Shown: positions 10,607 through 52,982 of the stretch, in pieces
Layout: every line of letters begins with the position of its first letter
Position numbering within the stretch: position 1 is the stretch's first letter
Assembly (NCBI GenBank): GCA_032718475.1
Contig: JAUCBJ010008755.1
Coordinates: forward strand, 1-52,982
DNA from: Nemertoderma westbladi
Lineage: Eukaryota; Animalia; Xenacoelomorpha
Length of the DNA stretch: 52,982 nucleotides
Direction: 5' to 3'
Made by a program: the position numbers and the translations under genes
Notes under the pieces: model-generated
Databases searched by the model: none
Seen by the model: only the letters and a program-made list of their open reading frames with translations
Told to the model about the DNA's origin: nothing

Positions 10607-10799
10607 TCGACACACCAGTCGGGATTCCCTCGCCAACTCGGGGGTCCCGTCGCAAGATATATAAATCGTATTAGCAATACTTAATTAAGAAGCAATTAAT
10701 AGTCAATGAAATAATAGACTATTTGTTGGAATTTGTAAAATATCATAACATTTTGTCAATTTACCACTCACCGAAAATAGGAAGTCCCACACCCGTGTT

Positions 10800-25190: not shown

Positions 25191-26063
25191 CAGTAGTAGA
25201 GAGAAAGGCAGGGGTAAATAGACCCAGCCGCAGTAGAGACATAGTGTCGACTGGAGAGGGGTGTAGAAGTGAAGTAAGAGGTAGTGGAGTGATATGTGGC
25301 GAGTGGGGGGGGGGGGGGGGGGGGGGGCTACAGGAGCCCCACAACGAGAAGTTAGCAGCGAAAAAAGGGGGGCAGAGAGTGCCCCACAGGCGTCGACGGA
25401 TAATGTGTGGGCCGAATTAGGTAAACCGCAACACCCGGCAACGGAGAGTAATAAGAGATTAGAGATAAGAGATTAGAGACGAGAGAAAGAGATTGCGAGT
25501 ATCCCCAGCGGCGTGCAATCGAGCAGAGAGAGACAGGTTGACGTTGCGAGAGGGCGGACGAAGCGTCAAGCCCGATCAGAAGAGGGAAGAAGAACAGTGG
25601 AGTTTAACCGGGAGGTCGACGAGAGATCTCACGAGCGGGAATACTGCACTGTAGAGAGAAGAAGAGAAGAAAGTAGAAGAAGTGTCGCCGCGAATGACAG
25701 GAGAGCGAGGACGGATAGCAAGCCGTCGGTAGTCGAGATGGGAACGGAGAGTCAGTGGGGTCGAACTTCGGGAGATTGCCGTCGTCCCGGAGAAACGCAA
25801 CCTGGCGAGGCGCACTACGCGTCGAGAGAGGGGTATGCGATGTACCGGTGCGAGGACGAGAGCAGTAGAGGGGGTCGAAGAGAAATTTCCGGCAGGATCT
25901 ACCTACCGACTGAGAATGCTGTAGCCGTGGGGAGGATTATTCGAGAAGATTAAACTTCGATCCCGAGCGACACATACAGACTGCAGGACATACTGTAGGC
26001 CTTACTGCACATACTATAGGCCATGCTGGCAGAGATAATGTAGGCGATAGGATAGCGCGGACG

Positions 26064-29876: not shown

Positions 29877-30103
29877 TGTGTGGTTATTTGGTAATAACCC
29901 ATGAAAACTAAGTAATAAAATATCTGTTATTTTATTGAGACTAGCCAGTTATCTCTCATTACTGCTGTACTGCCTATTGTACTGCCTCAGACATATCTGT
30001 GTCCAACGACCTAATCAAGCTAACTATCTCAGTATATATTTTTACACCACCACCAACATAGTTCCGTACTGTATCAAAACTGTTCCGTACGGGAACTACC
30101 ACA
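29877..30103 (-). repeat. Gypsy 3' LTR (227 bp)
   Basis: Matches 34949-35175 except for 2 adjacent substitutions (cccATgaaa vs cccGAgaaa). Confidence 0.95.
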
Positions 30104-30112
30104 CCCTCCCTC
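30104..30112 (-). promoter_or_regulatory. Polypurine tract
   Basis: GAGGGAGGG immediately before the 3' LTR. Confidence 0.8.
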
Positions 30113-30135
30113 GAGCTCCAAAGGAGTTTATATAG

Positions 30136-33100: not shown

Positions 33101-34809
33101 AGGATCAGCCCCTGGATTTCTGGTGAAATCACAATTTCAGTTCTCGCGGTATTATTTCCGGCGGAAATACTTGCGGGTAAGCGACCGTTAGTTTCTATTG
33201 GTAGACCATCGGCGGCGATCAAATCCATGTTAGAGGATAGGAGTAGATCCTTTTTGTTTCCCCCCAAATCGTGGAAGAGGTCTTCATTTAGAAGAGTTGC
33301 CGCCGCGCCGCTGTCGGGAAGCGCACGTTGGATTTGCCCTAATAGTTTACCAGTATAGGGGTTTGCGAGAGATACTGCAAGGTAATCGAGTTTACATACA
33401 GCATCTCTGTACTCCAAGCGGTTGATTGAAGTACGAGAAAGAACTGTGTTGGCAAAAGACCTGGCGGGTTTCTTTGCTGAACCACCAGATCTGCACATCT
33501 TTTTGTAGTGGCCAGTTTTACCACACCCATCGCATATTACCCCTCGGGCGGGGCAGGTTGCTCCTAGATGTTGTTCGTGCCCACAGTTTCCGCAATTGCG
33601 GGCGCGATCCCGATCCCCTTTGGATGTATTAAATCTAGGAGCTGGTACCGGGGTAGAGGGTTGGCCGGAAGACCTTCCGGGATGTTGGTTTCCGACATTT
33701 GGGCGCGACATTGGAGAGCGGCCCCCCCGCTGCCTGTACTGGGAGATCTTCCCAACGGAGCGGCAGCTACCCAGTACTTGCGTATTCTTTGCACTGGATT
33801 CGTAGTTCTGACATAGAGTTCGAGTTTCCTCCAGAGTGGGTCTGGGGAGTATTTTCAGCAGATCTTGCTGGGTTTCGGTATCGTATAAACCGACCAGAAT
33901 TTGAGTGACAATTTGATTATCGCGGCATTCAGTACACAGTTCAGCGAGTTCGGCGAGATGTCTGAGGGCCCGGTAAAAATCGTCAAAGTTTTCGTTGGCG
34001 CCCTGACGGCGTTTGTGAAACTGCATACAATCGAGCGCAATACTCCTCTTGGCGCGGAGGTGCTGTTGCAGTTTATCGAGGATGGCGGTTGTATCGACCG
34101 CGTCATCGTTTGGATCGAGTTCCAGAGTGCGCTTAACGACATCTGTAAGTCCAGGACCCAATGCAGTAATAAGAGTATGTACGAGTTCACCACGCGGACA
34201 ATTCTCCGCGCTCTGACGGCGAAGGTTACTGTCCCATGTCTCCCGCCAGCGACGGAAGGTGGGAAGTTCGATCGAGGTATCGAGTTTATCTAGGTTGCCG
34301 ATGTCGATCGTTCGCCGTCGGATGGGGATCGCAGGCGGTTGGGGAGTTCCCGGTACCGCGAGGTTTGGTTGAGGTTGACCAAACTGAACGAGAAGGGCCT
34401 GGAATCGTGCATCTGCTGCGGCTTGTTGCGCGTCCAGGCGGCGTTGAGCGTTTTCTTCTGAACGCCGTTGCTCTTCCCGGTATTCTCGTTGTTGATTTTC
34501 TAGGCGGCGTTGAGCCGCCTCCTGTTGCTGCGCCATAAACTGCATAAGTTTAGCGAGGCTAGGTTGAGCCTCAGTAGGCTGTTCGCGAAAGGGGTCTTCG
34601 TTCGTATCCGAATCTTCCTCCATTTCGGCGATCCGAGCCTGGAGTTTTTTCCGAAGTGACGCAGTGGATGGTCTCCCCTCGGTTGGAATACCCGCAGAGA
34701 TGCAAAACCCGATCAGATCTTGCCGGTTGAGTTGTTCCATATCCTCAGGAGAGAGTTGAGTCCAATCTAAAACTGGAGGAGTTCCAGCGGTGGGTTGAAC
34801 CTCGGCCAT
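30136..34809 (-). CDS. Gypsy gag-pol polyprotein (1557 aa)
   Basis: Zn knuckles CGNCGHEQHLGATC and CDGCGKTGHYKKMC; protease LPDSGA; RT LRLCVDLRGLN, DAAHGYWQ, IVDD; RNase H TDAS, ELELLAV, TDHQPL; integrase H-H-C-C and D(SADFF)-D(RSDGG)-E(HAEAAV). Confidence 0.96.
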   Translation of the reverse strand: MAEVQPTAGTPPVLDWTQLSPEDMEQLNRQDLIGFCISAGIPTEGRPSTASLRKKLQARIAEMEEDSDTNEDPFREQPTEAQPSLAKLMQFMAQQQEAAQRRLENQQREYREEQRRSEENAQRRLDAQQAAADARFQALLVQFGQPQPNLAVPGTPQPPAIPIRRRTIDIGNLDKLDTSIELPTFRRWRETWDSNLRRQSAENCPRGELVHTLITALGPGLTDVVKRTLELDPNDDAVDTTAILDKLQQHLRAKRSIALDCMQFHKRRQGANENFDDFYRALRHLAELAELCTECRDNQIVTQILVGLYDTETQQDLLKILPRPTLEETRTLCQNYESSAKNTQVLGSCRSVGKISQYRQRGGRSPMSRPNVGNQHPGRSSGQPSTPVPAPRFNTSKGDRDRARNCGNCGHEQHLGATCPARGVICDGCGKTGHYKKMCRSGGSAKKPARSFANTVLSRTSINRLEYRDAVCKLDYLAVSLANPYTGKLLGQIQRALPDSGAAATLLNEDLFHDLGGNKKDLLLSSNMDLIAADGLPIETNGRLPASISAGNNTARTEIVISPEIQGLILSKSVCQDLGILPAGFPQPASVSTVTISPSSISHVDASSATALLNRYGDCFDDEAAPLSIIPGPPMHIKLKEGATPHHVRGARPIAMALREEVKTLLDSLVRRNIIQRVEEPTDWAHPLTVTRKPNGKLRLCVDLRGLNSQVERPFYPTPNPRLKIAEISRTAKFFSVFDAAHGYWQVPLDPESQLLTTFVTPWGRYKHTRSVMGLISSGDEFNRRGDIALEGIPRMLKIVDDVLLYDDTLEEHLASIQRFLERCRSKGICLHPDKVQLAKSQVKFGGYLVGADGIRADPTKLSAIASFPRPETLTDLRSFIGLVEQLAPFSAEISQMLLPLRTLLSAKSPYIWNSDHSRAFEATKVALTSPPVLAPFDISLETKLVTDASRLKGLGYALLQRHGTDWRLIECGSRFISQTESRYATVELELLAVAWAIKKCHNYLLGLPIFTLVTDHQPLVTILDRKNFSEVENARIQRLKSRLAPYNFLTSWVKGKSHSIPDALSRSPVDQPTPADLIDDGETSFCLHSVTLSTVSAISGFDHLEDPILQDLATIARADPAYMALHAAVHDGFPLHTPNDPAVGAYWSLRNELTTDDDLILYGERIVIPAAARASTLERLHSPHQGMDKSLRRARQCIYWPGLTNDIRQSVASCPSCLRYRATPPKETFLEEPPPSRIFEDISADFFQLNGRHYIALVDRYSGWPDLNSFSGAPSAANTINSLKKWFSRYGIPTRLRSDGGTPLTDGATVSFLADWGVTPVTSSAEYPQGNGHAEAAVKALKSLLDKTGSRPDSPAFAEGLLALRNSPRETGLSPAQIVYGHPLRTRVPAHHSAFHADHQTTRRHLDTLTPPLRRAKIADYNKAARDLPPLAVNDPVVVQDPRSHRWDRKGTVVEAGPHRRYTVRTPSGRTISRNRRFLLRDSTSLPLTSTIPAHPVVLDNPATPGSPDPQAVADVDPTQPPKTVSWDPQLTQTRAIRQRTPSRYPTRQRRPPRRL

Positions 34810-34936
34810 CGTACCGGATATAGTGAGCTCGTAGACGGAAAAAGTCGTAGTCGGTTTACTCCACGTTCCGACGGATAGACGCGGTTAAACGCGTGTGCGA
34901 GGGTTGCAGGTCAGCAGGTAGGCAGTATACCGGTAA

Positions 34937-34948
34937 CTCGCAGCGCCA
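34937..34948 (-). promoter_or_regulatory. Primer-binding site (Ser tRNA-like)
   Basis: TGGCGCTGCGAG directly after the 5' LTR. It is complementary to a tRNA 3' end ...CTCGCAGCGCCA. The Ser assignment is from memory of tRNA-Ser 3' ends. Confidence 0.75.
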
Positions 34949-35175
34949 TGTGTGGTTATTTGGTAATAACCCGAGAAAACTAAGTAATAAAATATCTGTT
35001 ATTTTATTGAGACTAGCCAGTTATCTCTCATTACTGCTGTACTGCCTATTGTACTGCCTCAGACATATCTGTGTCCAACGACCTAATCAAGCTAACTATC
35101 TCAGTATATATTTTTACACCACCACCAACATAGTTCCGTACTGTATCAAAACTGTTCCGTACGGGAACTACCACA
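34949..35175 (-). repeat. Gypsy 5' LTR (227 bp)
   Basis: Direct repeat of 29877-30103. Confidence 0.95.
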
Positions 35176-35240
35176 CCTACCTACACGTACACCTACCTAC
35201 ACGTACACCTACCTACACGTACACGTACCTACACGTACCT
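35176..35240. repeat. Simple repeat (cctacctacacgtaca-type)
   Basis: Short tandem acctac/acgtac units abutting the LTR. Confidence 0.8.
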
Positions 35241-35590
35241 GGACTGACAACAAAATTCAGAAGTGCCGAAATGACCTTCATAAGGCGCAGAAAGAGTCCC
35301 GACTCAAACAGACTACAGCGGCCAAGAATGCAGTTAAAGCTGCATCTAGGTCCCTGAACAGGCAGTACTCTGTTAATCTACAGGAGCTAATAAACCAACA
35401 GGTTGATGCCATCAATGATGCTGACGACAGCAGGCAATCATCCCAGGCATGGAAATCGATCAATCTGCTTACTGGGCGGAAAAGCCAACCAACCATCAAG
35501 GTGAAGGCTGAATCACCAGCCGATCGCCTCAATGGTTGGAAAGCCCACTTTGAAAAGCTCCTCAATAATGACAGGGTATTGCCTGATAAC
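35241..35590 (+). mobile_element. Non-LTR retrotransposon (RTE-like) fragment, endonuclease-RT linker region
   Basis: Open frame ...SSQAWKSINLLTGRKSQPTIKVKAESPADRLNGWKAHFEKLLN matches the AW..IN..GRK / W..HF..LL linker pattern. Confidence 0.65.
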
Positions 35591-35984
35591 TTTATTTAAA
35601 TTAACAATTATATATATACCGGTAATAGAAAATTACCAAAAAATATTTGTGTAAACAATACCAATAATACCAATAAAAAAAACCAATACATATATCCCGC
35701 GGGGTTGATAAGCACATAATTGTGTTTCTTATTTAACTTTAGTAGTTATATCTAGGTAAGAGGTTGAACTAAGAAGTAAATTGAGATTAATTGGCATTTA
35801 TTACAATAAATTATTACAAAACAAAAACATTACAGTACTATAAATTTAATTTAAATTTGTTGAAAATTACAAAACGTAAATTACGTAAATTGCAAAAATT
35901 ATTACTATATATTAATTTATTGCATTAGTGGCCGAGGATAATATTTCATTCGTAAAGTTGTCCCAGCAATAAAATTCGTAGGCG

Positions 35985-36440
35985 CAGTCAATAATTTGTA
36001 CGTGTCGTGTAGTCAATGCAGTGGTTAAACTCATTTCCACGATCAATAATTCGTACACGGCGTTGTCGCAGCGGTTAAACTCATTTCCACGATCAATAAT
36101 TTGTACGCGGCGTCGACGCAGGGGTTAAACTCATTTACACGGAGGATAATTCGTACACGGCATCGACGCAGCGGTTAAACTCATTTCCACGATCAATAAT
36201 TCGTATGCGGCGTCGTCGCAGCGGTTAAACTCATTTCCATGATCAATAATTCGTATGCGGCGTCGTCGCAGTGGTTAAACTCATTGCCACGATCAATAAT
36301 TCAAACGCGGCGTCGTCTCAGCGGTTAAACTCATTGACACGGAGGATAATTCGTACGCTGAGTTGACGCAGTGGTTAAACTCATTGCCATGCTCGATAAT
36401 TCGTATGCAGAGTCAATGCACCAGTTAAACTCATCGTCAC
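35985..36440. repeat. 50-bp diverged tandem repeat, about 9 copies
   Basis: ggttaaactcat recurs at 36023, 36073, 36123 and so on to 36373, with a variant at about 36423. Confidence 0.92.
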
Positions 36441-36459
36441 AGCTATGAAACATCATCAG

Positions 36460-38253
36460 TGAGTTGGGGCATCATCCAGAGAATATTCCTAGCCTTCAAA
36501 CTCCACCACAAAGTAAAATAAAACTCGAGTTATTAACGTTTAAAGAATCAGCTAATCAGAGGCCGTATCTGGTGACCACAGTATGGTCGCGACCTGGGAC
36601 CCAAACTGGAGCTTCAGAGTACCGTCCAAAACATTTTCGCATAAAATTGTACCGTAAAATATCAAGGCCTGGGCACATTTTCGACGTTTGAAAGTAAGAG
36701 CCAATCAGGTGCCAGATATGGTGACCACGGTCTTGTCTCGACCTGAGACCCAGACTGCAGCTTCAGATTACCGGCCAAAACATATTCACATAATATTATA
36801 TCAAAAAATGTTATTGCCTATAGGCAGGACACCTACCGGTACACGGTCAGTAATGATCATGTCCTGACTGCATGATTTCGGTCTGATGAAATTTTCTGTT
36901 GCATGCATCAGATACCCATCAATGGCCTTTACCCACCTTGATGGTCAAAATCCATTCCGTCAGATAGCCCTGGGTGAGGTATTGAAATAACGCAATTACA
37001 TAGGCCTACAAGCCTACATAGGCAACTTTTAACTGCACCAAACAACCGTAATTTAGGCATTCAGAGTGCGCCCGAACATGGGGAACATTATTGCCAACCT
37101 TGGGCATCTGCCTACAACGTTTTAAATAACTGCCAGAAAGCCTAAAGCGTCCCCTTACATCTGTACATGTCTTAAGAACAGACAAAAGGTACCCGGTACC
37201 GCGGCGCAGTACTGCTGTCTGGCTGTACCGGATGTGGTTGTTCTAGGCAAGCAGTGCATACAGCTCGGACTGACAGTACCGATAGCAGACCCAGAGTACA
37301 CCGGCACTGCAGACTATGATTAGCTACATACAGACAGAGCTAGGTAGTAGCTACCGGCAGACCGGCATAGGTCAGTAGTATGAACACAGTTTTTGGAGCA
37401 TACTACCAACTGACTGACTTTTGCTGAACCAGGCTGACGACTCAGCCGTTTAATTAATTGCAGCGGGATTGGATAATTTATTAATTAATTTGGGGAACTT
37501 TACTAATTAGTAAAATCGTTAATTAGTTTGATTCAAAAGATTTTAGAGTAATTATCATTTGTAAAATAGTAAACCGCTTTGATACACCTTGTGAATAAGG
37601 ATTTGGGGGCGGGGGGGACAAAGCCCCCCCGCCAATTAGGTAATTAAGTAATTAGTTAATTACTAATTAACGGTAGGAGATACGGCATCGGCGCCAGAGA
37701 CTTTTTTGTGTAGAATAAAATTCCAAACAACTTTGTGATGTTACGTTTTTTCATAGCTCTTAGTGTTTTCGAGTTACGACGCTAATTAGTTTTCGGCTAA
37801 TTAGTACTAATTAACAGTAATAGGAGGGCCATAGCGATGACTGAACTTTTTTTAGATCTTACCGAGATGAACAAAAAAAATCACCGTTGCTAGGGGAAAA
37901 ACCAAATACTTTTCGAGAAAAATCAATTAGAAATTTTTAATCGCTAATTACTAATTAATTAATTAACAGATTTTTTCCACAAAAACTCCTAGCTATCGCG
38001 CTAGGGCCATCTACCAGATCGCGCAAACAGAATCGTTCTAGCTTTCGCCGTTCTCCTGGAAAAATCCTTTAAAAATCGACCTAAAAAAGATCAAAGCAAA
38101 GTGCCTACTTCTTGTCAGTTAGCTATATATAGTAAATTATGAGGTTTGAAGTTGGTGTTGATGGTGGGTTCTATGTTCCGTTAAATAGGCTGCAGTATCT
38201 ATACCTAATAATTCTCTGTCGAGCCTTGGGCTCTCCGGTTGCAGCCTAACCAT
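36460..38253 (-). mobile_element. Module D: non-coding element related to modules B (interior) and A (right end); left boundary not found
   Basis: 36466-37290 is homologous to 41754-42520. The right end shares gtgcctactt..tgtca, gttggtgtt, ctctgtcgagcc..gggctc and ccat with A. Confidence 0.55.
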
Positions 38254-39989
38254 CTAGAGTAGAGCGCAAATGAGGACATTTGCGCATGCAAGCATCACTG
38301 CGTGGGGCAATTTAATTAATAGTACTTTTGGTTTTATTGTGTTGTACCAACACAAAAATTGTAAATATGAAGATATGTTATTATCTATACCCATGCATTT
38401 GGAATCATACACAGGCGATGCCTTCAATTATTCAATTCAAAACATTGAAGAAATCTAAGTCGATTTGTAAGGCAGGTTCAAGCATATACATTTATTGTAT
38501 TGGTTAACTCCATTATACAAATCTAACGATTAATACCTCAGAAAACTTCTAACTACATGTAGTACTACTGGACCAGTATATTAGTAATAGCTTCAGTATA
38601 TTAGTAATAGCTTACAGACAGCTATAGCAACACCCACCCACCACCCTTAACATGATTACTTTAATTTCAAATAGACCATGGGTGATTGTTTAATGATGGT
38701 TCACCCAGCCATTTCATGTCTGGGTGAACCAAATGACTTTTGTATACAACCTGACTTCTAAATATCCTTATGTTTTATCACGAATACTATCATCAAAGAT
38801 CTTTGACCTTTTGACCCTTAACATTTAAACTTTTTCCATTTTTTATTTCATCTACCCCCACTAAGTCAACCATTGCGAACATTTTTGCTGCGTTACGTTT
38901 TTTGATAGCTGTACTCCTTATAGGTCAAAAGGTCACCGAAACGCTAAATTCTAGAACATTGACCTCTAGAGGTCAAGCACAGGGTCGCAGCCCAAAACTA
39001 ACGGCACTCTTCAGTAGCAACTCATACACTGCCTACAAAACGGCGTTGGTCCCATGTCCGTAGCTAGAGCCGTTCTCGAGATATTGGGGTGGGGCAATAA
39101 TTAATTATTAATTAATACATAACTAATTAACGCTTACACTTTTTGCATTTTTTATTTTACCTACCCCCACTAAGTCGACCATTGCGAACATTTTTGCTGT
39201 GTTACGTTTTTCGATAGCTGCACTCCTTATAGGTTAAAATGCCTCCGAAACCGAAAATTCTAGAACATTGACCCCTGGAGGTCAAGGACAGGGTCGCAGC
39301 CCAAAACTAACGACACTCTTCAGTAGCAACTCGTATACTGTCTACAAAATGGCGTCGGTCCCATCTTCGTAGCTGCAGCCATTCTCGAGATATCGGGGCG
39401 GGCCATATATTAATTAGTAATTAACGAATATCTCATTAAGGGTTGGTCGTACAGACTTGCCGAGAAGACTTTTATACTCGAAATTCCATTCTCTACAACT
39501 TTGCCAGAGAAAATTTTTTCGTAGCTGCCGCCGTTTTCGAGATACAGCGCTAATGAGATTTCGCTAATTAATAACTCATTAACGGTAATAGATATGGGTT
39601 CGCCGTGACAGGGTTTTTTGTAGAGCTCGTCGAGACCAACAATATCGCCAGTCATTGTTTATATAAAAAGTCTTTTAGTTTTCGAGATATATCGATTAAA
39701 AGTTTTCAATCGTTAATTACTAATTAATTAATTAACAAAATTTTTTGAAAAAAACTCCCAGATCTTAGATATTGGTCCTCTACACGATGCAAAAAACAGA
39801 ACGACCGTAGCTATTTCCCTTCTATGAGATGTGCCTACTTGTCACCCCACTGCATAAGCCTGTAAATATTGAGCAGGATAGGTTGGTGTTATATGTTTTG
39901 TGCTCTCTGTGTTTCGTTCTCTGTGGCGTTTTCTATGGTCTATGAGGTCTCTATCGAGCCCTTTGGGCTCTATCCACGCCTGATCCCAT
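38254..39989 (-). mobile_element. Module A: putative non-autonomous Helitron-like element (1736 bp)
   Basis: Second copy at 45731-47467. The minus strand ends with hairpin GCGCAAATG-tcct-CATTTGCGC, then 6 nt, then CTAG. Internal 309-bp duplication. Confidence 0.6.
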
Positions 39990-42861
39990 CCAGTGGATGG
40001 GCACCAGTTGACCTCTCTGTAGCCGAGAGCACTCCAAAAATATTTTATAACATAAAAATAGTACAAAATGAGCATTGGGGATGCATATTCCAAAACATTA
40101 TACCTGAGAACTTTTAAAAATTTCAATATTGAAAATTATGTTTGGAAATTTAGAAATGATTTCACATGCAAAAATGTTTAATATTTATAGGTATCGGATC
40201 TCCCGATACATAAACATATGTTCATGTATTTTATATTATGAGATAAAGTTTACTAACCTTATGTATCTCTATAATAGTGGTAAATACAGTAGGCCTATAA
40301 TATATAACGTGTACCAGATAGTGTTCATTATTTATCAATATTTTATTATATCCATGTAAATTTTTGATCAAGATAATATATATTTAGTGCAATATGGATT
40401 ACTCCTGATAACTTGCAAACGACAATAAAGCGAAAAAGACATACAACATTTATAATGATACAGTATTTATATATTATTTCATGTCAAATTATTTTTGAAG
40501 TTATATAAAGTTAAATTAGGGCCTACCTATAGTAATCCCACTTAAACTTTAAATTCTTATGTATTTTATAGAGATATCATCAATAAATATATCTTCTTAT
40601 CAATAGGGTTGACGAACAAATGAGATGAACTTCAGTAAATAAATCATCAATATTTAAAAGTCCCTTGTTTTTAATTCATCCTCACCATCACCACCCTTTA
40701 CAACATGACTTTATACCTTTGTCAGCCAATTTAATGATATTACTAATCACATTACTGCCAACAATATGACCACCACTAACCCCCCCCCCCCCCCCCTCCC
40801 CCAGATATATACTGTACTAGCCCGTCCATATCGAGGTGTCAGAAACTGGTCGCTCCAGTCGCGTCGCAAGCGACGCTCCTTCCGCTGAGAGTGACCATGT
40901 CCTTGATATCTTTTGTATTATAATGATTTCCTAGTTTTATCTTTTAACATATAATAAGAACAAAATCCATTAATATCAAATGTTACCATGGATAAATAGC
41001 GACCTGGGGGTGATGTTGTGTGTTTATTCAATTACATAGATAGGGAATATATACTTCTAAAAATAATATAAAATTGAATTCCTCTAAGCTAAATTAGTTT
41101 GCTTTATGATACAGTATTGCGTTTTTATATTCGCCTACATGTAATGATTACTAAACAAAAGCCAAAACTGATATTTTATTATATATAAAAAAATATATAT
41201 ATCAATATTATATAGTTTATCTTTACCTTTACCTTTAGTTTACCTTTATATCAAACATTCCTGGATTAGAGGTCGCCCATGGGTATTTCTGCCTATTAGG
41301 GGGTACAGGGAATACTCCTGAGATGGTTATAAATAATAATTTTGCAAACCAAATGCAACAAATATCGAGATATTGCGATTTTAAATTCGACCAATCAGAA
41401 ACGACCATAACTCCGGAACCGTAATTGCAATATCACTTCGATCTTCATCAACGGGATGGGATCGCACCAGAGAACATTTTAATATTTTATTCGCCGCACC
41501 AAAGTGAATGGATCTCGAGATAAGGAGTCTTTAAAAATTAACCAATCACAGCGCAGCTCTCCTTAAACGGTGGTTCCACCGCGATGGCGTTGTCGGCAAC
41601 GTAACGGGGATGATCCAAGGAACATTCTAAGCTTTTATTCGATGCTCCAAAGTTAATAGATCTCGAGATATCGCGTTTTAAAATTTCGACCAATCACAGG
41701 CCATGTAGCCAAAACCAGTAATCCAACAGCGATGAATCGTCTTCAGTCAGCTAGGGGACGTTCCATAGAATATTCCAAGCCTTTAAACTCCGCCACAAAG
41801 TGAATAAAACTCGAGTTATTAACGTTCAAAGAATCATCCAATCAGAGGCTGTATCTAGTGACCACGGTAAGGTCGCGACCTGGGACCCAAACTGGAGCTT
41901 CAGAGTACTGTCCAAAACATTTTCGCATAAAATTGTACCGTAAAATATCAAGGCCTGGGCACATTTTCGACGTTTGAAAGTAATAGCCAATCAGGTGCCA
42001 GATATGGTGACCACGGTCTTGTCGCGACCTGAGACCCAGACTGCAGCTTCAGATTACCGGCCAAAACATATTCGCATGAAATTATATCAAAAAATGTTAT
42101 TGCCTATAGGCAAGACACCTACCGGTACACGGTCAGTAATGATCATGTCCTGACTGCATGATTTCAGTCTGATCAAATTTTCTGTTGCATGCATCAGATA
42201 CCCATCAATGGCCTCTACCCACCTTGATGGTCAAAATCCATTTCGTCAGATAGCCCCGGGTGCCGGGTGCGATATTGAAGAACGCAATTTGGGCATTTAC
42301 AAATTTGGCCACTTTTTATCTGCTTCAAACAACAGTACTTTAGGCATTCAGACCGCGCCCGCACAGGGGGGGCATTATTGGCGCCCTTGCGCATCTGCCT
42401 AGAACGTTTAAACTACCTGCCAACAGGCCCAAAGCCTCCCCTTAAGAACGGACAACAGGTACCGCAGCGCTGTACAGGTGTACTGGCAGTGTGAGTGGTT
42501 CTAGCATACAGCTCTGACTGACCGATGATTCAAGATTTTGCAATACCTACTGAATCAGCTGTTGTTTATACAGTATCCTAGCAACCAGCTAATAATTTTG
42601 ATTAAATAAATTTATTATAACTTAAATCATTTTTTTTAACTATGATCCCAACGCCGGAAAATACTCAAAATTTTTCCTGCAACTATTTCGAGGGTGGCGA
42701 ATCCGATGGCGAAGACCGCGATGGCTGAAAATTTGCCGTTCTTCAGATCATGAGAATCTCGAAGTGCTGTAGATTGTTCTGCAAGGTGTGGAAGGCGGGG
42801 GTCCCCGTGCCTGTGTACCTCTACAAGGTACCGCTCTGCGAGCTGTGCCTGCCCCATCCAT
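39990..42861 (-). mobile_element. Module B: putative non-autonomous element (2872 bp), copy 1
   Basis: Near-identical tandem copy at 42862-45730. Bounded by CCATCCAG junctions. Internal ~149-bp subrepeats. Confidence 0.6.
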
Positions 42862-45730
42862 CCAGTGGATGGGCACCAGTTGACCTCTCTGTAGCCGAGA
42901 GCACTCCAAAAATATTTTATAACATAAAAATAGTACAAAATGAGCATTGGGGATGCATATTCCAAAACATTATACCTGAGAACTTTTAAAAATTTCAATA
43001 TTGAAAATTATGTTTGGAAATTTAGAAATGATTTCACATGCAAAAATGTTTAATATTTATAGGTATCGGATCTCCCGATACATAAACATATGTTCATGTA
43101 TTTTATATTATGAGATAAAGTTTACTAACCTTATGTATCTCTATAATAGTGGTAAATACAGTAGGCCTATAATATATAACGTGTACCAGATAGTGTTCAT
43201 TATTTATCAATATTTTATTATATCCATGTAAATTTTTGATCAAGATAATATATATTTAGTGCAATATGGATTACTCCTGATAACTTGCAAACGACAATAA
43301 AGCGAAAAAGACATACAACATTTATAATGATACAGTATTTATATATTATTTCATGTCAAATTATTTTTGAAGTTATATAAAGTTAAATTAGGGCCTACCT
43401 ATAGTAATCCCACTTAAACTTTAAATTCTTATGTATTTTATAGAGATATCATCAATAAATATATCTTCTTATCAATAGGGTTGACGAACAAATGAGATGA
43501 ACTTCAGTAAATAAATCATCAATATTTAAAAGTCCCTTGTTTTTAATTCATCCTCACCATCACCACCCTTTACAACATGACTTTATACCTTTGTCAGCCA
43601 ATTTAATGATATTACTAATCACATTACTGCCAACAATATGACCACCACTAACCCCCCCCCCCCCCTCCCCCAGATATATACTGTACTAGCCCGTCCATAT
43701 CGAGGTGTCAGAAACTGGTCGCTCCAGTCGCGTCGCAAGCGACGCTCCTTCCGCTGAGAGTGACCATGTCCTTGATATCTTTTGTATTATAATGATTTCC
43801 TAGTTTTATCTTTTAACATATAATAAGAACAAAATCCATTAATATCAAATGTTACCATGGATAAATAGCGACCTGGGGGTGATGTTGTGTGTTTATTCAA
43901 TTACATAGATAGGGAATATATACTTCTAAAAATAATATAAAATTGAATTCCTCTAAGCTAAATTAGTTTGCTTTATGATACAGTATTGCGTTTTTATATT
44001 CGCCTACATGTAATGATTACTAAACAAAAGCCAAAACTGATATTTTATTATATATAAAAAAATATATATATCAATATTATATAGTTTATCTTTACCTTTA
44101 CCTTTAGTTTACCTTTATATCAAACATTCCTGGATTAGAGGTCGCCCATGGGTATTTCTGCCTATTAGGGGGTACAGGGAATACTCCTGAGATGGTTATA
44201 AATAATAATTTTGCAAACCAAATGCAACAAATATCGAGATATTGCGATTTTAAATTCGACCAATCAGAAACGACCATAACTCCGGAACCGTAATTGCAAT
44301 ATCACTTCGATCTTCATCAACGGGATGGGATCGCTCCAGAGAACATTTTAATATTTTATTCGCCGCACCAAAGTGAATGGATCTCGAGATAAGGAGTCTT
44401 TAAAAATTAACCAATCACAGCGCAGCTCTCCTTAAACGGTGGTTCCACCGCGATGGCGTTGTCGGCAACGTAACGGGGATGATCCAAGGAACATTCTAAG
44501 CTTTTATTCGATGCTCCAAAGTTAATAGATCTCGAGATATCGCGTTTTAAAATTTCGACCAATCACAGGCCATGTAGCCAAAACCAGTAATCCAACAGCG
44601 ATGAATCGTCTTCAGTCAGCTAGGGGACGTTCCATAGAATATTCCAAGCCTTTAAACTCCGCCACAAAGTGAATAAAACTCGAGTTATTAACGTTCAAAG
44701 AATCATCCAATCAGAGGCCGTATCTAGTGACCACGGTAAGGTCGCGACCTGGGACCCAAACTGGAGCTTCAGAGTACTGTCCAAAACATTTTCGCATAAA
44801 ATTGTACCGTAAAATATCAAGGCCTGGGCACATTTTCGACGTTTGAAAGTAATAGCCAATCAGGTGCCAGATATGGTGACCACGGTCTTGTCGCGACCTG
44901 AGACCCAGACTGCAGCTTCAGATTACCGGCCAAAACATATTCGCATGAAATTATATCAAAAAATGTTATTGCCTATAGGCAAGACACCTACCGGTACACG
45001 GTCAGTAATGATCATGTCCTGACTGCATGATTTCAGTCTGATCAAATTTTCTGTTGCATGCATCAGATACCCATCAATGGCCTCTACCCACCTTGATGGT
45101 CAAAATCCATTTCGTCAGATAGCCCCGGGTGCCGGGTGCGATATTGAAGAACGCAATTTGGGCATTTACAAATTTGGCCACTTTTTATCTGCTTCAAACA
45201 ACAGTACTTTAGGCATTCAGACCGCGCCCGCACAGGGGGGGCATTATTGGCGCCCTTGCGCATCTGCCTAGAACGTTTAAACTACCTGCCAACAGGCCCA
45301 AAGCCTCCCCTTAAGAACGGACAACAGGTACCGCAGCGCTGTACAGGTGTACTGGCAGTGTGAGTGGTTCTAGCGTACAGCTCTGACTGACCGATGATTC
45401 AAGATTTTGCAATACCTACTGAATCAGCTGTTGTTTATACAGTATCCTAGCAACCAGCTAATAATTTTGATTAAATAAATTTATTATAACTTAAATCATT
45501 TTTTTTAACTATGATCCCAACGCCGGAAAATACTCAAAATTTTTCCTGCAACTATTTCGAGGGTGGCGAATCCGATGGCGAAGACCGCGATGGCTGAAAA
45601 TTTGCCGTTCTTCAGATCATGAGAATCTCGAAGTGCTGTAGATTGTTCTGCAAGGTGTGGAAGGCGGGGGTCCCCGTGCCTGTGTACCTCTACAAGGTAC
45701 CGCTCTGCGAGCTGTGCCTGCCCCATCCAT
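42862..45730 (-). mobile_element. Module B', copy 2 (2869 bp)
   Basis: By eye it differs from copy 1 only in poly-C length and a few substitutions. Confidence 0.6.
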
Positions 45731-47467
45731 CTAGAGTAGAGCGCAAATGAGGACATTTGCGCATGCAAGCATCACTGCGTGGGGCAATTTAATTAATAGT
45801 ACTTGTGGTATTATTGTGTTGTATCAACACAAACATTGTAGATATGAAGATATGTTATTATCTATACCCATACCTTTGGAATCATACACAGGCGATGCCT
45901 TCAATTATTCAATTCAAAACATTGAAGAAATCTAAGTCGATGTGTAAGGCAGGTTCAAGCATATACATTTATTGTATTGGTTAACTCCATTATACAAATG
46001 AAACGATTATTACCTCAGAAAACTTCTAACTACATGTAGTACTACTGGACCAGTATATTAGTAATAGCTTCAGTATATTAGTAATAGCTTACAGACAGCT
46101 ATAGCAACACCCACCCACCACCCTTAACATGATTACTTTAATTTCAAATAGACCATGGGTGATTGTTTAATGATGGTTCACCCAGCCATTTCATGTCTGG
46201 GTGAACCAAATGACTTTTGTATACAACCTGACTTCCAAATATCCTTATATTTTATCATGAATACTATGATCAAATATCTTTGACCTTTTGACCCTTAACA
46301 TTTAAACTTTTTGCATTTTTTATTTCATCTACCCCCACTAAGTCGACCATTGCGAACATTTTTGCTGTGTTACGTTTTTTGATAGCTGTACTCCTTATAG
46401 GTCAAAAGGTCACCGAAACGCTAAATTCTAGAACATTGACCTCTAGAGGTCAAGCACAGGGTCGCAGCCCAAAACTAACGGCACTCTTCAGTAGCAACTC
46501 ATACACTGCCTACAAAACGGCGTTGGTCCCATGTCCGTAGCTAGAGCCGTTCTCGAGATATTGGGGTGGGGCAATAATGAATTATTAATTAATACATAAC
46601 TAATTAACGCTTACACTTTTTGCATTTTTTATTTTACCTACCCCCACTAAGTCGACCATTGCGAACATTTTTGCTGTGTTACGTTTTTCGATAGCTGCAC
46701 TCCTTATAGGTTAAAATGCCTCCGAAAACGAAAATTCTAGAACATTGACCCCTAGAGGTCAAGGACTGGGTCGCAGCCAAAAACTAACGACACTCTTCAG
46801 TAGCAACTCGTATACTGTCTACAAAATGGCGTCGGTCCCATCTTCGTAGCTGCAGCCAATCTCGAGATATCGGGGCGGGCCATATATTAATTAGTAATTA
46901 ACGAATATCTCATTAAGGGTTGGTCGTGCAGACTTGCCGAGGAAGACTTTTATACTGGAAATTCCATTCTCTACAACTTTGCCAGAGAAAATTTTTTCGT
47001 AGCTGCCGCCGTTTTCGAGATACAGCGCTAATGAGATTTCGTTAATTAATAACTCATTAACGGTAATAGATATGGGTTCGCCGTGACAGGGTTTTTTGTA
47101 GAGCTCGTCTAGACCAACAATTTCGCCAGTCATTGTTTATATAAAAAGTCTTTTAGTTTTCGAGATATATCGATTAAAAGTTTTCAATCGTTAATTACTA
47201 ATTAATTAATTAACAAAATTTTTTGAAAAAAACTCCCAGATCTTAGATATTGGTCCTCTACACGATGCAAAAAACAGAACGACCGCACCTATTGTAGTTC
47301 TCCATAAGAGCCTACTTGTCAACCCCCCTCCTAAGCCTGTAAATAATAATCTGGATAGGTTGGTGTTATATGTTTTGTGCTCTCTGTGTTTCGTTCTCTG
47401 TGGCGTTTTCTATGGTCTATGAAGTTCTCTGTCGAGCCCTATGGGCTCTATCCCCGCCTGATCCCAT
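45731..47467 (-). mobile_element. Module A', copy 2 (1737 bp)
   Basis: Colinear with 38254-39989, with scattered substitutions and the same termini. Confidence 0.6.
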
Positions 47468-48559
47468 CCAGAGATGGTGGAGTATACGCATACTCCACTG
47501 TTGCAAGAATTACTTCATTAATCATGAAGATTACAAATTACTTTAATAAATTATTAAATCTATTAAATATTTCATTATTATTTATGAAAAAAATATCCAA
47601 ATCATGAGAAAATTATAATAAATTGAAATATACAATAAGAAAAATAACTTGAAAATAATTAAATTCTAAACAATTTCATTTTTAAGATACATGGCTTAGT
47701 CTATATAACTTACTTGCGTAATTATATAATCGGACATATACAATAACTGCGCCTGTGTCCTGCTGACACAGGCGCAAGGCCCCCCCCCCCATAATTATTA
47801 ATATGGATAAAGTTAAATGTATGTTTTTTACTAAACTTATTTGTCCAAATTGCTCCATCTCATGATTATTATAAGCTTGGTAGAATCATGCCATTGTTCT
47901 GGTTCGTCTATGTTTGGTAGAATTGTGACATCATCTGATTGGTTTAAGTTTGGTAGAATTGTGTCCTTCTTTGTTGTTTAAATGCAGTAGAATATCACCA
48001 TAGTATTAAGTCTAGTAGAATCATTAAATATATAGTTATAATAAAGTCTTGAAGCCAGGCAAAAAACTTTTAAATTATATTATTATTATAATTTAATAAT
48101 AAATAAAAAAAAAATTAAATAATAATGTGTTTCGTCCGGCATCAGGACTCATCAGCAGTACTGCCATGTACTGGACACCTGGGATCTAGCAAAGGGTGTC
48201 CCGCTTCCGCTAGCGGAGGTCTGGTAGGATGCGGCTACGTCCAGGATGAGGATAGACAATGTACCCAGCAGTCATTTTATAAACATAGCAATGTATGGAT
48301 ATGCGAAATAATGGTTTGTTAACAGAGTGAAAAGCTACAATAACACAGGGCATGCGCATCAGTCATACAGCCAAAGGTTCGAAAACCAAAGGGTTTGTGC
48401 CAAGTAGATCCTTTGAAATTCACTAAATTACATACATTTCACATGTCCATATAATGCTATGTTTATAAAATGCGTGCCAAATACATTGGGTGACCACGAA
48501 GGAAGGGTCCCACAAGGAAGCGGACCAAGGCGAAGGGTCCAAGAAAAGAAAGTCGAATA

Positions 48560-48845
48560 TCGAGTCTTCTTTCTTCTTATCTTATCTCATCTTATCTTAT
48601 CCTATCATATCCTATCCTATCTTATCTTATCTTTATCATATCGTGTCGTGTCGTATCGTATCGTATTGTATCGTATCTTCTTTCTTCTTGCTTCTTTCTT
48701 CTTGCTTCTTTCTTCTTTCTTCTTGCTTCTTTCTTCTTGCTTCTTTCTTCTTTCCAGTCTTATCTTATCCTATCTTGTTTTATCTTATCCTATCTCATCT
48801 TATCTATCTTTATTCTTCAGGCTTCTATCTTTCTTCAGTCTTCAG
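48560..48845. repeat. Compound CT-rich microsatellite
   Basis: (tctta)n, (tcgta)n and (ttct)n blocks. Confidence 0.9.
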
Positions 48846-49399
48846 TCCAAGGGAAGGGACTACGACAAAAAAGGGTTGTGGACATAAGCCCCCATGTGAT
48901 GAATACCAGGTTTTCACTAACAGAATGGTTTAATCAAACCAAAACGTTAAAATAATTAGTATTTGTACAGGTAATAAGATAGAAACGCTATAAAACATTT
49001 AATAAGATTAAATTTGTCAAATACAACTTCTTTATATATAAAATTTCCATAAAATTCAAACCGGAAAGTAGAAATCTGGTATTCTTCACATCGGCAGACA
49101 GACGGATACAGGGAGGCAGGGGTCAAGAAAGAGCAGGGGAAGGCAGGAAATTAAAAAATAATAAACTAATAATATATAATATAACTATAATAAATAGTAA
49201 CAAACTCAAGGATGAAGTCTGCTATACTACTAAAAATACTACTACTATGTCATGCGAGCTCAGACAAAAAGAATTTTATAACCAAATAATATATACTTAT
49301 TAATTAATAATCTACAACCAACCATTTAATGCATAAATGAGTGATAAATATATTTTGTGATATCAGTTTTGGTGGGTCATAAGCTTGTGTTAATGTCAT

Positions 49400-49920
49400 G
49401 CCTGCTTATTTCATCTATATTCATTTCTTAATCAATTTATGCTTCAGTTGGAAGCAGTGATCTCAATAAATGACTATGTCATGAATTATTAGCTGCCTGC
49501 TTATTTCATCTATATTCATTTCTTAATCAATTCATGCTTCAGTTGGAAGCAGTGATCTCAATAAATGACTATGTCATGAATTATAAGAGGAAATAGATAG
49601 GAGGTACTTGTCCAGTGTCTCATGAGTTTGTATTAATCTCATGGGCTGCCTGCTTATTTCAACTATATCCCATTCTTAATCACTGCATGCTTATGTTGGA
49701 GCAATGATCTCAATAAATGACTAGGTCATGAATTATTAGAGGGATTAGATTGGCAGCAAGCTTTGTCTTTATTTGTCATGGACGTTTCCAGATGGCATAT
49801 TATTTTTAGATTCATGCACCATGTATAAAATGATTTATCATGAAACTTTCCAGAATAGCATTTTATTTTTTTAGTCTCATGCACCATGTATAGAATGATT
49901 TATCATGAAACTTTCCAGAT
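49400..49920. repeat. Short local duplications
   Basis: A ~90-bp unit gcctgcttatttca...gtcatgaattat at about 49400, 49495 and 49648, and tcatgcaccatgtata...gaaactttccaga twice at about 49812 and 49877. Confidence 0.85.
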
Positions 49921-50156
49921 TGCAATATGATTATAATATACTACTACTACCACTAGTAGGTCAAGCGAGCTTGGACAGGACATGAATATATATATATATA
50001 TATATAAAAGTAAACATTGATAGATACTTGTTCTCTACCATGTGAATCTATGTATGTACACCATAAACTTCAATAATAATTTAATACATAAAAATCACAA
50101 CAAATGGGAGAAAATATATAAAATGATTCAGTTTACTACTAGATTTCTGGTTTGTA

Positions 50157-52982
50157 CTAGAGTTGATCTGTGTCTTCAAATATGGTTCGCCCAACACCAG
50201 TTTGATTAGAGCCAAGGCGTCCTAGTCGTTCCAACTGTAAATTCCAACTACTCGGTTGAATGGCATATTCCTGTGCAACTTTTAGTGCTGTGAGTAGTAC
50301 TTCCTCTGGCAGTGTATGATAACTAGTTCCTCTATGTATATATCTTTCAACTTGCAGCCGCATGTCTTTTAGATCATCTTCACTCGCATCCACTGGGAAA
50401 CCGTGTATAAATGCCAGAGGTACCCATGGCATAAATTGGGTGTTTCGTGTAAAAATGCTTCCATCGCCTCGGTTATGTTCTCGTAGTCTTGTAATAAGGT
50501 GCCTTTTAGTTTGACCTACATATGACACGTTTGGGAATTTTGTTGATATAAGTATATAGACAACGCCCGCAATATATTCAGGAATTTCCATACTTCGGAA
50601 GGTATAGGGAAAGTCAGTATTTGGTTGAAAGTTTTGAAAGGCAACCCCAGTAATAGCCGCAAGACGTGAGGTGATATATGCCGCCCACTTGTCCTCCTTA
50701 TGAAGCAGTAGTCTTATCGTTGACAAAGTCTGTAGTTTTATGCCAACAAAGTAAAGTGTAGTAAGTAGTAATACACGGGAGAGTAATACATTTAGCTGTG
50801 ATCGCTCCCATAGGCGGAGGTGTTTCCTTGCTGTTTCAATATTATTTACTTCTGTAGCCATAAGTGGACATTGATCTCCCATTATTCGATGGATTGTATT
50901 TGCTTTATAATACCGGAGAGGAAATTGAAATCGGTGACCTTTCATAAGACCTGCGCCCACTATTTCATCTGCAGTGTACCGCCTCCTTACCTCAAATATA
51001 GGCCAATCTTCTGAATCCTGAATAGTAAGGTCACGCTCTCCTGGAGGAACGAGGCGAAGAGTAATGGTAGCATCTTCACTCTGTGGATTTTCGGGTAGGA
51101 CCACAACAATACCAAGCTGACCTTGTGAAAACTTTACATTCCCAACACTTTTATTATATGTAAGACGAAGAACTGCTCCAACAAATACAAGTAATTCCTC
51201 AGGCTCCAAGCTGATACGATCGATCCGAGTTTTGGAATAACCTGTAGCTGGCTTCCATCGCAAGTTATCATAAACTTCATCTACTGCTGTCATATGCTGA
51301 ACAACAATGCCAGGTTCACGAACCTTCTCCTCAAGAAAGTGTTTTATTACTTCTTGTTCTCCTAATTTAGTTGAAACAACACGCATGGCATGCTCTGGTA
51401 CATCGTCCCATGTTGGTGGAAATTTGGCATTATTAGAAATGATCATGACTATATCTTCTATAACATCTGGGGGAATAATTGGGGAGCGGATCGCCTCGAG
51501 GACAAACTGTAGGTTAGGGTCTGCTGCGCATCGAACATATTCTTTCAGTAGTATTACCTTAAATGCAGTTCCTAAATGGATTGATGTCCAGAATGGTTTT
51601 CCATCAATGGGGGGTAGTTGGTATGGGTCTCCATTTGCAATTACAAGTTTACCTCCAAAAGGTTGGTCTGTGTTCATTATGTGCTTCATTACTGTATCCA
51701 AAACACCATACTGTTCTGCAGAAATTAGTCCAATCTCCTCAATAACTAAAACATCCATTCTTTGTAATAGAACCATTTTTTTAGCGTCAGAACGTTGTAG
51801 CGCCTTAATAGTATGTGATGCCATTGAGTCAGGTGAAAGTTTTTTCTTGGTAACCTCTAAGGGAAATAACTGGTGTAAGTGTATTCCTCCTAGTGAACGT
51901 GCCCTTTCAGATGTTAAAGATGTCAATACCACATTCAATCCACAACACATAGCATAGAGGGAAACTGCTTGCACTAGAAAGGTCTTACCTGCTCCTGGTG
52001 GGCCAACAAAGCATGGAAAACGATTGGAAAGGTGTGTTGGATCCTTGAATTCGTCAATTGTATTCTTTGCCTTGTTGAGAGCAATACCCTGCTCAATAAT
52101 GCTGGCCTCTGACTGATGAGGAACTGTTGGTAAAATAGGATCCCAGAATATTGGACTTTCAACTGTAGCTCCTACCACTTCGGTTATATTTGGTACATCA
52201 TCCATCTTGGGAGCCATGGCACCAATAAGATTCTTTGCCAATGTTGTACGACGCTCCATCTCAATAATGTTAATAACCTCCTCGGCCTTCTCCTTTATGG
52301 CTATTTCGGAAACATCTGGGAGATCACTGGTATATTCCTCACCTCCACCCAGTACAGAATCGATGGCTTCTTTGGACAGTTTGACGTATTCTTGGAATTG
52401 TCTTTTACGGAGAGGGAGATGGATGCAGAGCTCATCAAGATATCGCCTAAGAACTGCTGTAATTTCCTCTTGAACTATATTATTTGAGTCTCGAATAAGT
52501 CCTACACGTTGGAACGGTATACGGAAACCTGTGGTATTATCGAATATATCAAATTCTGTCTCATAAGTACCTAATGCTAGTATAATATGGTATATGAATT
52601 TAATTCGTTCCCTTGGATGTACATCTTTCACTACTGGTATAACTTCACCACTTTCACTTTCATCTACAAATATTTTAGTTGTTGGCCGTTCTTCTGCATT
52701 GGCTTCTGTGTCCAGGCGAATGAGGAGGCAATGAAGGAAATCTAAACTACATTGAATAATAACTGGTTCCTGTATTTCTCCAAGTGTGTTAACATAAGCT
52801 CTAAGTTTTTCGATTCCAGATCGTCTCAATTTAATATTGTTACCACAGCCATCATAAAGAGGTATTGTCAAAGGATCGCAAAGAAATATATCACTGTTTC
52901 CACTGAACCTTCCTTTATTAGGAACTACAATCTCATGATATAGAGCAAGTTTCTTTATAGCGAGCAACTCTGGTGGACGGAT
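50157..52982 (-). CDS. PIF1-family (SF1B) DNA helicase fused to a C-terminal GIY-YIG endonuclease; 5'-partial
   Basis: Helicase motifs: GPPGAGKT, LVIEEIGLIS, PFGGKLVIANGDPYQLPPI, LKEYVR, QFPLRYYKANTIHRIMG, QLNVLLSRV. Nuclease motifs: GVVYILIS...SYVGQT...RLREHN...W...QVE. The frame is open to the window edge (ATC CGT CCA CCA GAG TTG), so the true start lies outside. Confidence 0.9.
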   Translation of the reverse strand: MRPPELLAIKKLALYHEIVVPNKGRFSGNSDIFLCDPLTIPLYDGCGNNIKLRRSGIEKLRAYVNTLGEIQEPVIIQCSLDFLHCLLIRLDTEANAEERPTTKIFVDESESGEVIPVVKDVHPRERIKFIYHIILALGTYETEFDIFDNTTGFRIPFQRVGLIRDSNNIVQEEITAVLRRYLDELCIHLPLRKRQFQEYVKLSKEAIDSVLGGGEEYTSDLPDVSEIAIKEKAEEVINIIEMERRTTLAKNLIGAMAPKMDDVPNITEVVGATVESPIFWDPILPTVPHQSEASIIEQGIALNKAKNTIDEFKDPTHLSNRFPCFVGPPGAGKTFLVQAVSLYAMCCGLNVVLTSLTSERARSLGGIHLHQLFPLEVTKKKLSPDSMASHTIKALQRSDAKKMVLLQRMDVLVIEEIGLISAEQYGVLDTVMKHIMNTDQPFGGKLVIANGDPYQLPPIDGKPFWTSIHLGTAFKVILLKEYVRCAADPNLQFVLEAIRSPIIPPDVIEDIVMIISNNAKFPPTWDDVPEHAMRVVSTKLGEQEVIKHFLEEKVREPGIVVQHMTAVDEVYDNLRWKPATGYSKTRIDRISLEPEELLVFVGAVLRLTYNKSVGNVKFSQGQLGIVVVLPENPQSEDATITLRLVPPGERDLTIQDSEDWPIFEVRRRYTADEIVGAGLMKGHRFQFPLRYYKANTIHRIMGDQCPLMATEVNNIETARKHLRLWERSQLNVLLSRVLLLTTLYFVGIKLQTLSTIRLLLHKEDKWAAYITSRLAAITGVAFQNFQPNTDFPYTFRSMEIPEYIAGVVYILISTKFPNVSYVGQTKRHLITRLREHNRGDGSIFTRNTQFMPWVPLAFIHGFPVDASEDDLKDMRLQVERYIHRGTSYHTLPEEVLLTALKVAQEYAIQPSSWNLQLERLGRLGSNQTGVGRTIFEDTDQL

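Follow-up and report, generated by a model that had tools for sequence, protein, structure and literature searches.

Reading frame and module array

The stretch of DNA analysed here (the window) covers 52,982 nucleotides of contig JAUCBJ010008755.1 from Nemertoderma westbladi (assembly GCA_032718475.1). At its right-hand end lies the back part of a large gene that fuses a helicase with a nuclease, and beside it runs an array of repeated modules; both are discussed here as parts of a Helitron-like system. The gene is seen as a minus-strand open reading frame (ORF) of 941 codons without a stop (50157–52982), which is open at the window edge. Pfam placed a PIF1 helicase at residues 325–462 (E 1e-13) and a GIY-YIG domain at residues 806–866 (E 9e-6, above the curated cut-off), and no NCBIfam model matched the protein above its cut-off. 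The top structural matches of the AlphaFold model of the ORF (mean predicted local distance difference test score, pLDDT, 74.8) were Pif1 helicases (E 6e-25). Every helicase motif could be placed; motifs V and VI (TIHRIMG and QLNVLLSR) diverge from their canonical forms, and K333, E416, and R736 were invariant in 30 of 30 aligned sequences. The ORF thus carries the PIF1-family superfamily 1 helicase that is expected of Helitron-like elements. The GIY-YIG domain fills the C-terminus up to the stop codon, and no C-terminal apurinic/apyrimidinic (AP) endonuclease, the hallmark of Helentrons, was found in the ORF. The original prediction of a stop-free ORF with PIF1 motifs followed by GIY-YIG was therefore borne out by the frame, Pfam, and the AlphaFold model. 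Its description of the ORF as intronless holds for the 2.8 kb inside the window and is demonstrated for that stretch only.

Self-BLAST resolved the region from 35.6 to 53 kb into six head-to-tail modules, X-B-A-A-B-C, whose five boundaries all fall at CCATCYAG (Table 1). Taken by itself, this motif was not above chance (6 sites seen, approximately 2.6 expected); 5 of the 6 sites lie exactly on repeat boundaries that self-BLAST found independently. A perfect stem of at least 8 bp follows 3 of the 5 junctions, compared with 3 of 536 other CYAG sites. Read on the minus strand, all five junctions consist of CTRG and then ATGG, not of the 5' TC type of the Helitron-like element (HLE) group HLE1, and the start of module C itself lies outside the window. 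The 3' hairpin followed by CTRR, which is typical of HLE1, is present in C and in both B copies. As predicted, the ORF is oriented towards the hairpin and CTGG end at 47468, with a 9-bp hairpin 5 nt before CTGG on the minus strand; the GAGCCC/GGGCTC hairpin at 47434–47448 lies in the start of the adjacent module B and is not part of C.

Modules X and B have a common motif and a hairpin near their starts, and A has a looser version as judged by eye. The end-to-end inverted matches were 8 bp in A and 6 bp in B, and the junctions do not lie in T runs. Tandem repeats occur inside every module (36018–36434, 38818–39424, 41472–42095, and 49399–49932; units of 50, 309, approximately 149, 95, and 65 bp); such repeats are also a feature of other non-autonomous Helitron-like elements. 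The modules, the junctions, and the multi-copy homologues described below show repeated elements with defined ends and non-autonomous partners, as found in Helitron-like elements, and contig depth is suggestive only in this respect. What this window contributes is the element ends and the mixed head-to-tail array. The Y of CYAG goes with the right-hand module, which places the crossover inside CCATC, and a reading of the modules on the plus strand was ruled out on this ground. An element of the DDE type with terminal inverted repeats (TIRs) was also ruled out, as there is no DDE domain and there are no TIRs beyond 8 bp. Rfam gave no match over 34900–52982.

Table 1. Features of the ORF and of the module array in the window
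Feature	Position	Strand	Basis
C-terminal 941 codons of a predicted Rep-helicase-GIY-YIG transposase	50157–52982	-	ORF, homologues; full-length homologues 2,200–2,850 amino acids (aa)
PIF1-family helicase core, approximately residues 324–738 (Walker A G327–K333, Walker B E415–E416, R736)	50769–52013	-	Pfam, alignment, AlphaFold model
SLX1-like GIY-YIG domain, approximately residues 806–885 (Y809, Y821, R832, H836, E879 all kept)	50328–50567	-	Pfam, profile and residue alignment
Module C: 3' part of putative autonomous element (ORF, then 2.7 kb of non-coding DNA containing simple and tandem repeats, then a terminal hairpin and CTGG)	47468–52982	-	Self-BLAST, contig depth
3' end of module C: 9-bp hairpin (47477–47498), 5 nt, CTGG (47468–47471)	47468–47498	-	Sequence inspection
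Module B copy 2, non-coding; ATGG start, GAGCCC/GGGCTC hairpin near start, 9-bp hairpin and CTAG end	45731–47467	-	Self-BLAST
Module A, two tandem copies, 99.8% identical, non-coding; ATGG start, CTGG end, 8-bp end-to-end inverted match	39990–45730	-	Self-BLAST
Module B copy 1, 96.7% identical to copy 2	38254–39989	-	Self-BLAST
Module X: ATGG start, very high contig depth, CTCTRTCGAGC motif also found in B, 727-bp internal stretch 88% similar to A	35596–38253	-	Self-BLAST; far boundary inferred from loose ends

Homologues, Rep domain, and lineage

Among 7,970 longer candidates, 14 passed and 13 of these were family members, the top ones being six Styela clava entries (2,532–2,843 aa, five LOC ids) with 43–45% identity over 98–100% of the query; the Cyprideis and Hyalella homologues were more distant. 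Among 7,993 candidates of similar length, 13 passed, of which 4 belonged to the family and 9 were bacterial-type Pif1 proteins. An exhaustive search gave 283 clusters at E ≤ 1e-30, and the best 150 of these 283 were listed. The family set comprised 162 proteins, 82 of which carry at least 800 residues ahead of Walker A. The family Rep profile matched 81 of these 82 long proteins, the single non-match (P0038) being a regex artefact, and a Rep profile made from the HLE1 and HLE2 references alone matched 67 of them. Rep motif 1, HUH, and YxxxY of the family align with those of HLE1 and HLE2.

The Rep region of P0029, which is 43–45% identical to the query, was modelled (pLDDT 79, predicted template modelling score 0.81). 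The best structural match was Helraiser 7LCC (Z 15.1, root-mean-square deviation 3.7 Å over 328 residues), the next match had a Z of 5.8, with numerous HUH Reps of viruses and plasmids further down. In Foldseek, Helraiser 7LCC was the sole match of this model at E ≤ 0.001. A two-tyrosine HUH Rep upstream of the helicase is thus seen in the homologues, and that of the window copy would lie beyond the window. From the homologues, its start is predicted approximately 1,430 nt past the window edge, and contigs from two sequencing runs extend 2,067 nt beyond this edge, which leaves room enough for it. We believed that the ORF is likely part of a Rep-helicase (RepHel) transposase, because an HUH/Y2 Rep with a fold like that of Helraiser precedes the helicase in the full-length homologues. 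The original prediction of a RepHel variant with GIY-YIG in the C-terminal slot where Helentrons have their AP endonuclease was supported by the homologues. The copy-number check that it proposed also came out in its favour, since relatives are multi-copy (five Styela LOC ids; six members of the P0063 cluster, at least 90% alike, on large contigs of five sizes).

The family proteins scored weakly against the Pfam Rep model, often below the cut-off, so annotation pipelines probably overlook them. Neither viral contigs nor metagenome contigs yielded, among the matches listed, any stretch flanking a family homologue. The metagenome contigs (1/64 parts) gave at least 10 loci, among which L006 is a stand-alone bacterial-type Pif1, and the loci placed in the tree group with Pif1 outgroups. 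The ESM Atlas holds two unnamed PIF1 and GIY-YIG clusters (0.98 and 0.93), which serve as a lead only.

The HLE1 references were taken from 35 loci in prokaryote assemblies that match the Helitron Rep pattern (L016–L050, e.g., contigs CAXXBX01...). These loci hold several full-length RepHel frames, 11 lie in one metagenome-assembled genome, and they are presumably eukaryotic contaminants. The HLE2 references were three DUF6570-bearing proteins, which entered both trees; the trees were quick and unrooted. The tree of the helicase had 56 rows and 391 columns (2 family rows were left out), and its 30 family rows formed one side of a long branch with a Shimodaira–Hasegawa-like approximate likelihood ratio test (SH-aLRT) support of 100. 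That of Rep had 35 rows and 243 columns (12 rows of the family and 1 reference were left out), and its 19 family rows did the same, again with an SH-aLRT of 100. The family fell outside the HLE1 clade on its own supported branches in both the helicase tree (5 references) and the Rep tree (13 references). The family and HLE profiles could be aligned over approximately 900–1000 columns, and the scores of HLE1–HLE2, family–HLE2, and family–HLE1 were 442, 334, and 314, respectively. DUF6570, the marker of HLE2, turned up in none of the 34 family proteins scanned, 31 of which were at least 1,600 aa long (control P0028, E 5e-18). A grouping of HLE1 and HLE2 without the family was not rejected (approximately unbiased test, p-AU 0.33). 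With three HLE2 references and unrooted trees, these results suggest that the family is likely a separate lineage on its own long branch. The literature on Helitrons and Helentrons with GIY-YIG, PIF1, or SLX1 and on tandem or new clades gave no description of this lineage, subscription papers and Repbase Reports being outside its scope. The element is apparently a Helitron-like RepHel with an SLX1-type tail, of a lineage apparently undescribed in the literature searched.

The strongest alternative keeps the Helitron-like transposase and denies it a lineage of its own: it would be a divergent HLE2 subgroup, for example near HelenSM92 or the 'unclassified' elements of HELIANO, or a member of the Paramecium Helitron clade. 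We took this possibility seriously, as one that falls somewhat short of an even chance. HELIANO reports GIY-YIG in one HLE2 family, HelenSM92 of Sphagnum, and unclassified elements in 19 genomes (PMC11417382). In our helicase tree, the family and HLE2 formed one side of a branch with a support of 15, and the profile score of the family to HLE2 was slightly higher than that to HLE1. OTU domains (in some family members) and intronless ORFs are common to both. Against this stand the long stem with full support in both trees, the HLE1–HLE2 score that tops either score to the family, and the absence of DUF6570 from the family proteins scanned. HelenSM92, which we compared by description only, is described with short TIRs, TT sites, and one captured domain (PMC11417382).

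Comparison with Helentrons and HLE2 as a whole pointed in both directions. Like them, the family has a single intronless Rep-PIF1 ORF with a second nuclease at the C-terminus (PMC4067079, PMC11417382), and Cys-pair motifs ahead of Rep. In contrast, its nuclease is an SLX1-like GIY-YIG and not an AP endonuclease, its Rep motif 2 contains an insert and no RG[SA]PH, and the ends seen here appear to be of the form ATGG...hairpin-CTRG, whereas HLE2 ends are described as subterminal inverted repeats in T runs (PMC4067079). With the canonical Helitrons of HLE1 (Helraiser 7LCC), the family and the modules of the window have in common the Rep fold, the two-tyrosine motif, the PIF1 helicase, the 3' hairpin with a CTRR-type end, and the head-to-tail junctions (PMC5876387). 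However, the starts here are ATGG/TGG and not TC, there is an extra nuclease, the arrays mix families at one junction, and the helicase does not resemble Helraiser more closely than it does cellular Pif1 (28.6 and 44.6 bits, respectively, for P0024).

A third Helitron clade, telomere-targeted and with CCAA ends, was described in Paramecium in 2026, and we compared it by description (PMC13085455). It lies outside HLE1 and HLE2, as the family likely does, and has giant ORFs, a hairpin before the 3' end, sequence-specific targeting, and abundant non-autonomous copies with satellites (PMC13085455). Unlike the present family, its CCAA ends sit inside telomeric repeats, the main text of that paper mentions no GIY domain, and its conserved segment reads INRPEELE where the family has F-x-x-RPPEL (PMC13085455).

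Proposed nuclease role and transposition model

With the family profile, the best non-helicase matches in the PDB were SLX1 enzymes (E 1e-9 to 5e-7), followed by UPF0213, and the window domain alone matched SLX1 chains only, weakly (5 matches, E 0.04–1.1). Y809, Y821, R832, and H836 align to Y14, Y26, R36 (Arg36), and H40 of Slx1, respectively, and E879 is placed at Slx1 Glu79 by spacing, beyond the printed alignment; the SLX1-type catalytic set of Y, Y, R, H, and E is complete in the window domain. In the 104 homologues with enough sequence after motif VI, these five residues were kept in 92, 78, 77, 80, and 81, respectively, and 75 kept all five. The catalytic residues were lost repeatedly in otherwise complete relatives, and the nuclease was degenerate at 8 of 26 tree tips with 7 changes, a figure that misalignment may inflate. 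No GIY-YIG domain was found in 92 reference sequences. From these sequence comparisons, the nuclease would have a long history in the family; it is intact in this copy and would be dispensable in several branches of the family. Because its catalytic residues were lost several times, it is likely accessory. Like the SLX1 endonucleases (PDB 4XLG, 6SEH, 7CQ2), the domain has a GIY-YIG core with RLRxHN and PW...GF motifs (PMC4407285); unlike them, it has no following RING, is fused to a transposase, and has a nuclease activity that is predicted.

We predicted that the GIY-YIG domain of this copy is an active structure-selective nuclease. As to its role, it has about an even chance of trimming flaps or resolving branched strand-transfer intermediates as an accessory enzyme, not as the source of junction specificity. 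That its role is marginal or unrelated seems less probable, and target nicking less probable still. The original prediction had taken the domain for a Penelope/homing-type nuclease, and this found no support, the nearest relatives among solved structures being of the structure-selective SLX1 lineage. It had also proposed that GIY-YIG cuts the target at the CCATC junction of the same element, as suggested for the AP endonuclease of Helentrons. The shared C-terminal slot, the whole catalytic set here and in most homologues, and the strikingly exact junctions all suit this proposal, and in PMC4067079 the target-nicking role of the Helentron endonuclease is itself a hypothesis. Studies have shown that Slx1–Slx4 cleaves flaps and Holliday junctions and leaves plain duplexes and single strands uncut, that it needs Glu79, and that Arg36 has an active-site role (PMC4407285). 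In Helraiser, the two HUH tyrosines alone make and cut the precise junction (PMC5876387). Together with the repeated decay of the nuclease, this leaves the proposal unsupported, and we consider a target-cutting GIY-YIG improbable.

We consider it very probable that the ORF is the helicase-nuclease end of a rolling-circle Helitron-like transposase from a deep and barely described lineage, which likely moves C and the non-coding A, B, and X. Studies have shown that Helraiser nicks one strand, forms circles, and cuts the precise junction with two tyrosines, and that Helitrons can form head-to-tail junctions and tandem arrays (PMC5876387). By analogy with Helraiser, the HUH/Y2 Rep would nick the minus strand at the element start, within GATGG, and remain bound; the PIF1 domain would peel the nicked strand as far as the hairpin and CTRG end; and Rep would close the peeled strand into a circle with a CTRG/ATGG junction. 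From the junction pattern, we speculated that the start of a resident element may be a preferred nick site and that the new copy is joined directly ahead of the old one. The SLX1-like GIY-YIG may then tidy flaps or branched strand-transfer intermediates. Targeting of resident starts would lead to mixed-family head-to-tail arrays at one register with exact junctions, and if it is true, the interrupted repeat should resume at the far end of the array.

The contigs of three sequencing runs (X1–X3, two samples) were placed on 47385–47545 and gave 10 loose-end rows. All 10 were of the module type: one was a B variant, six had a B start after an A, B, or new D end, and three had a C end followed by one new ATGG start. 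Across the three runs, the B start was preceded by an A, B, C, or new D end, all CTRG, and the C end was followed by B or by the one new ATGG start, the B/C join being present in all three. No unrelated flank at the B start or the C end was found among the 10 loose-end rows. The outer end of the array at 35595/35596 interrupts a high-copy repeat with differing continuations in many contigs (62 in X1). In the window, the continuation of this repeat and the new ATGG end are both absent.

Two module ends foreign to the window were seen in the runs at 47464–47471, namely the B-like 3' end (D) and the new ATGG start beside the C end. The latter may be the start of C itself; its inverted match to the C 3' end is a weak 6 bp (8 bp in A and 6 bp in B). 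In X1, the contig depth was even from 47759 to 52982 (280–372), and deletion variants of a nearby repeat reached 18–28. The contigs differed from the window by 7 in 2,109 nt (X1) and 10 in 2,960 nt (X2). The even depth and few differences suggest that module C is a young multi-copy unit, contig depth not being copy number. Over 48726–52982, the ORF side of module C was approximately 7 times deeper in X3 than in X1, two runs of one sample, with a similar depth of module B; this difference was set aside.

It is also conceivable that the element of the ORF merely landed next to an unrelated satellite-like array and that A, B, and X were moved by something else. In the window, C and the other modules have no direct identity beyond the junction, and the outer end of module X differs. 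However, the join of C to B keeps the CCATCYAG register of the other four junctions, C and B end in the same hairpin and CTRG design, and the B/C join recurs in every run; we regard a chance neighbourhood as quite unlikely. Least credible of all is a repair gene of the host in which PIF1 and SLX1 are fused, or else a gene of viral origin (Polinton or giant virus): PIF1 and SLX1 both work on branched DNA in host repair and the Rep of this copy is inferred only, but essentially every long homologue bears Rep, paralogues are multi-copy, and no family member was among the viral-contig matches listed. A search of viral contigs with the HLE1/HLE2 Rep patterns gave no match.

Several observations weigh against a Helitron-like transposase of a separate lineage that moves all of these modules. 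The Rep attributed to the window copy lies beyond the window edge, and the grouping of the family with HLE2 in the helicase tree has been given above. The start of C also lies outside the window, so no similarity between the starts of C and of A, B, or X is visible, and the partnership of the ORF with the modules rests on the common junctions. The stem is absent at the two junctions of module A, which ends in CTGG without a clear 3' hairpin, and the far end of module X at approximately 35596 is not CTRG but T-rich and abuts the interrupted repeat. The element ends are known from this genome only, and since rare variants are lost from contigs, single dispersed insertions could escape the loose-end survey. 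On the side of the nuclease, the single-sequence match to SLX1 is weak (E 0.04), and at most one of the five residues is left in 20 of the 104 homologues.

The target choice of Helitrons and the completion of their integration are still open questions. With a different, structure-selective nuclease in the Helentron slot and naturally nuclease-dead relatives as controls, the question becomes directly testable. The exact, family-mixed junctions are ready substrates; they suggest self-targeted insertion and bear on the satellite-like array growth of Helitrons. More tentatively, and with less than even confidence, we speculated that the family is a further deep Helitron clade beside HLE1, HLE2, and the Paramecium group, present in animals and protists, with an ancestral SLX1-type resolvase, and that it targets the starts of its own kind (CTRG/ATGG) and builds mixed tandem arrays as a safe haven. 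If this is true, a eukaryotic HUH transposase would combine sequence targeting with a junction-resolving nuclease of its own.

Other sequences in the window

With a Roc-COR-CARD frame, a Ty3/Gypsy-type pol, BEL-like pieces, and satellites, the surroundings of the ORF resemble an animal genome. The repeat cut by the module array at 35595 is represented by an internal piece at 35238–35595, which is of very high copy and had no Pfam match; we take it to be probably a non-long terminal repeat (non-LTR) element. Next to it, at 29877–35177, lies a Ty3/Gypsy-type LTR element with 229-bp LTRs that are 99.1% identical and an uninterrupted gag-pol frame of 1,582 codons (30136–34884, minus strand). This element sits inside a broken BEL/Pao-like element (DUF1759 at 25914–27608). 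Large satellites occupy 5322–10606, 10797–14636, and 18886–20871, with units of 49, 30, and 35 bp, respectively, and the 30-bp array yields long spurious open frames. On the minus strand at 15173–18226, an intronless frame of 1,017 codons encodes a Roco-type protein; its domain matches are Roc, COR-A, and, weakly and at the C-terminus, CARD.

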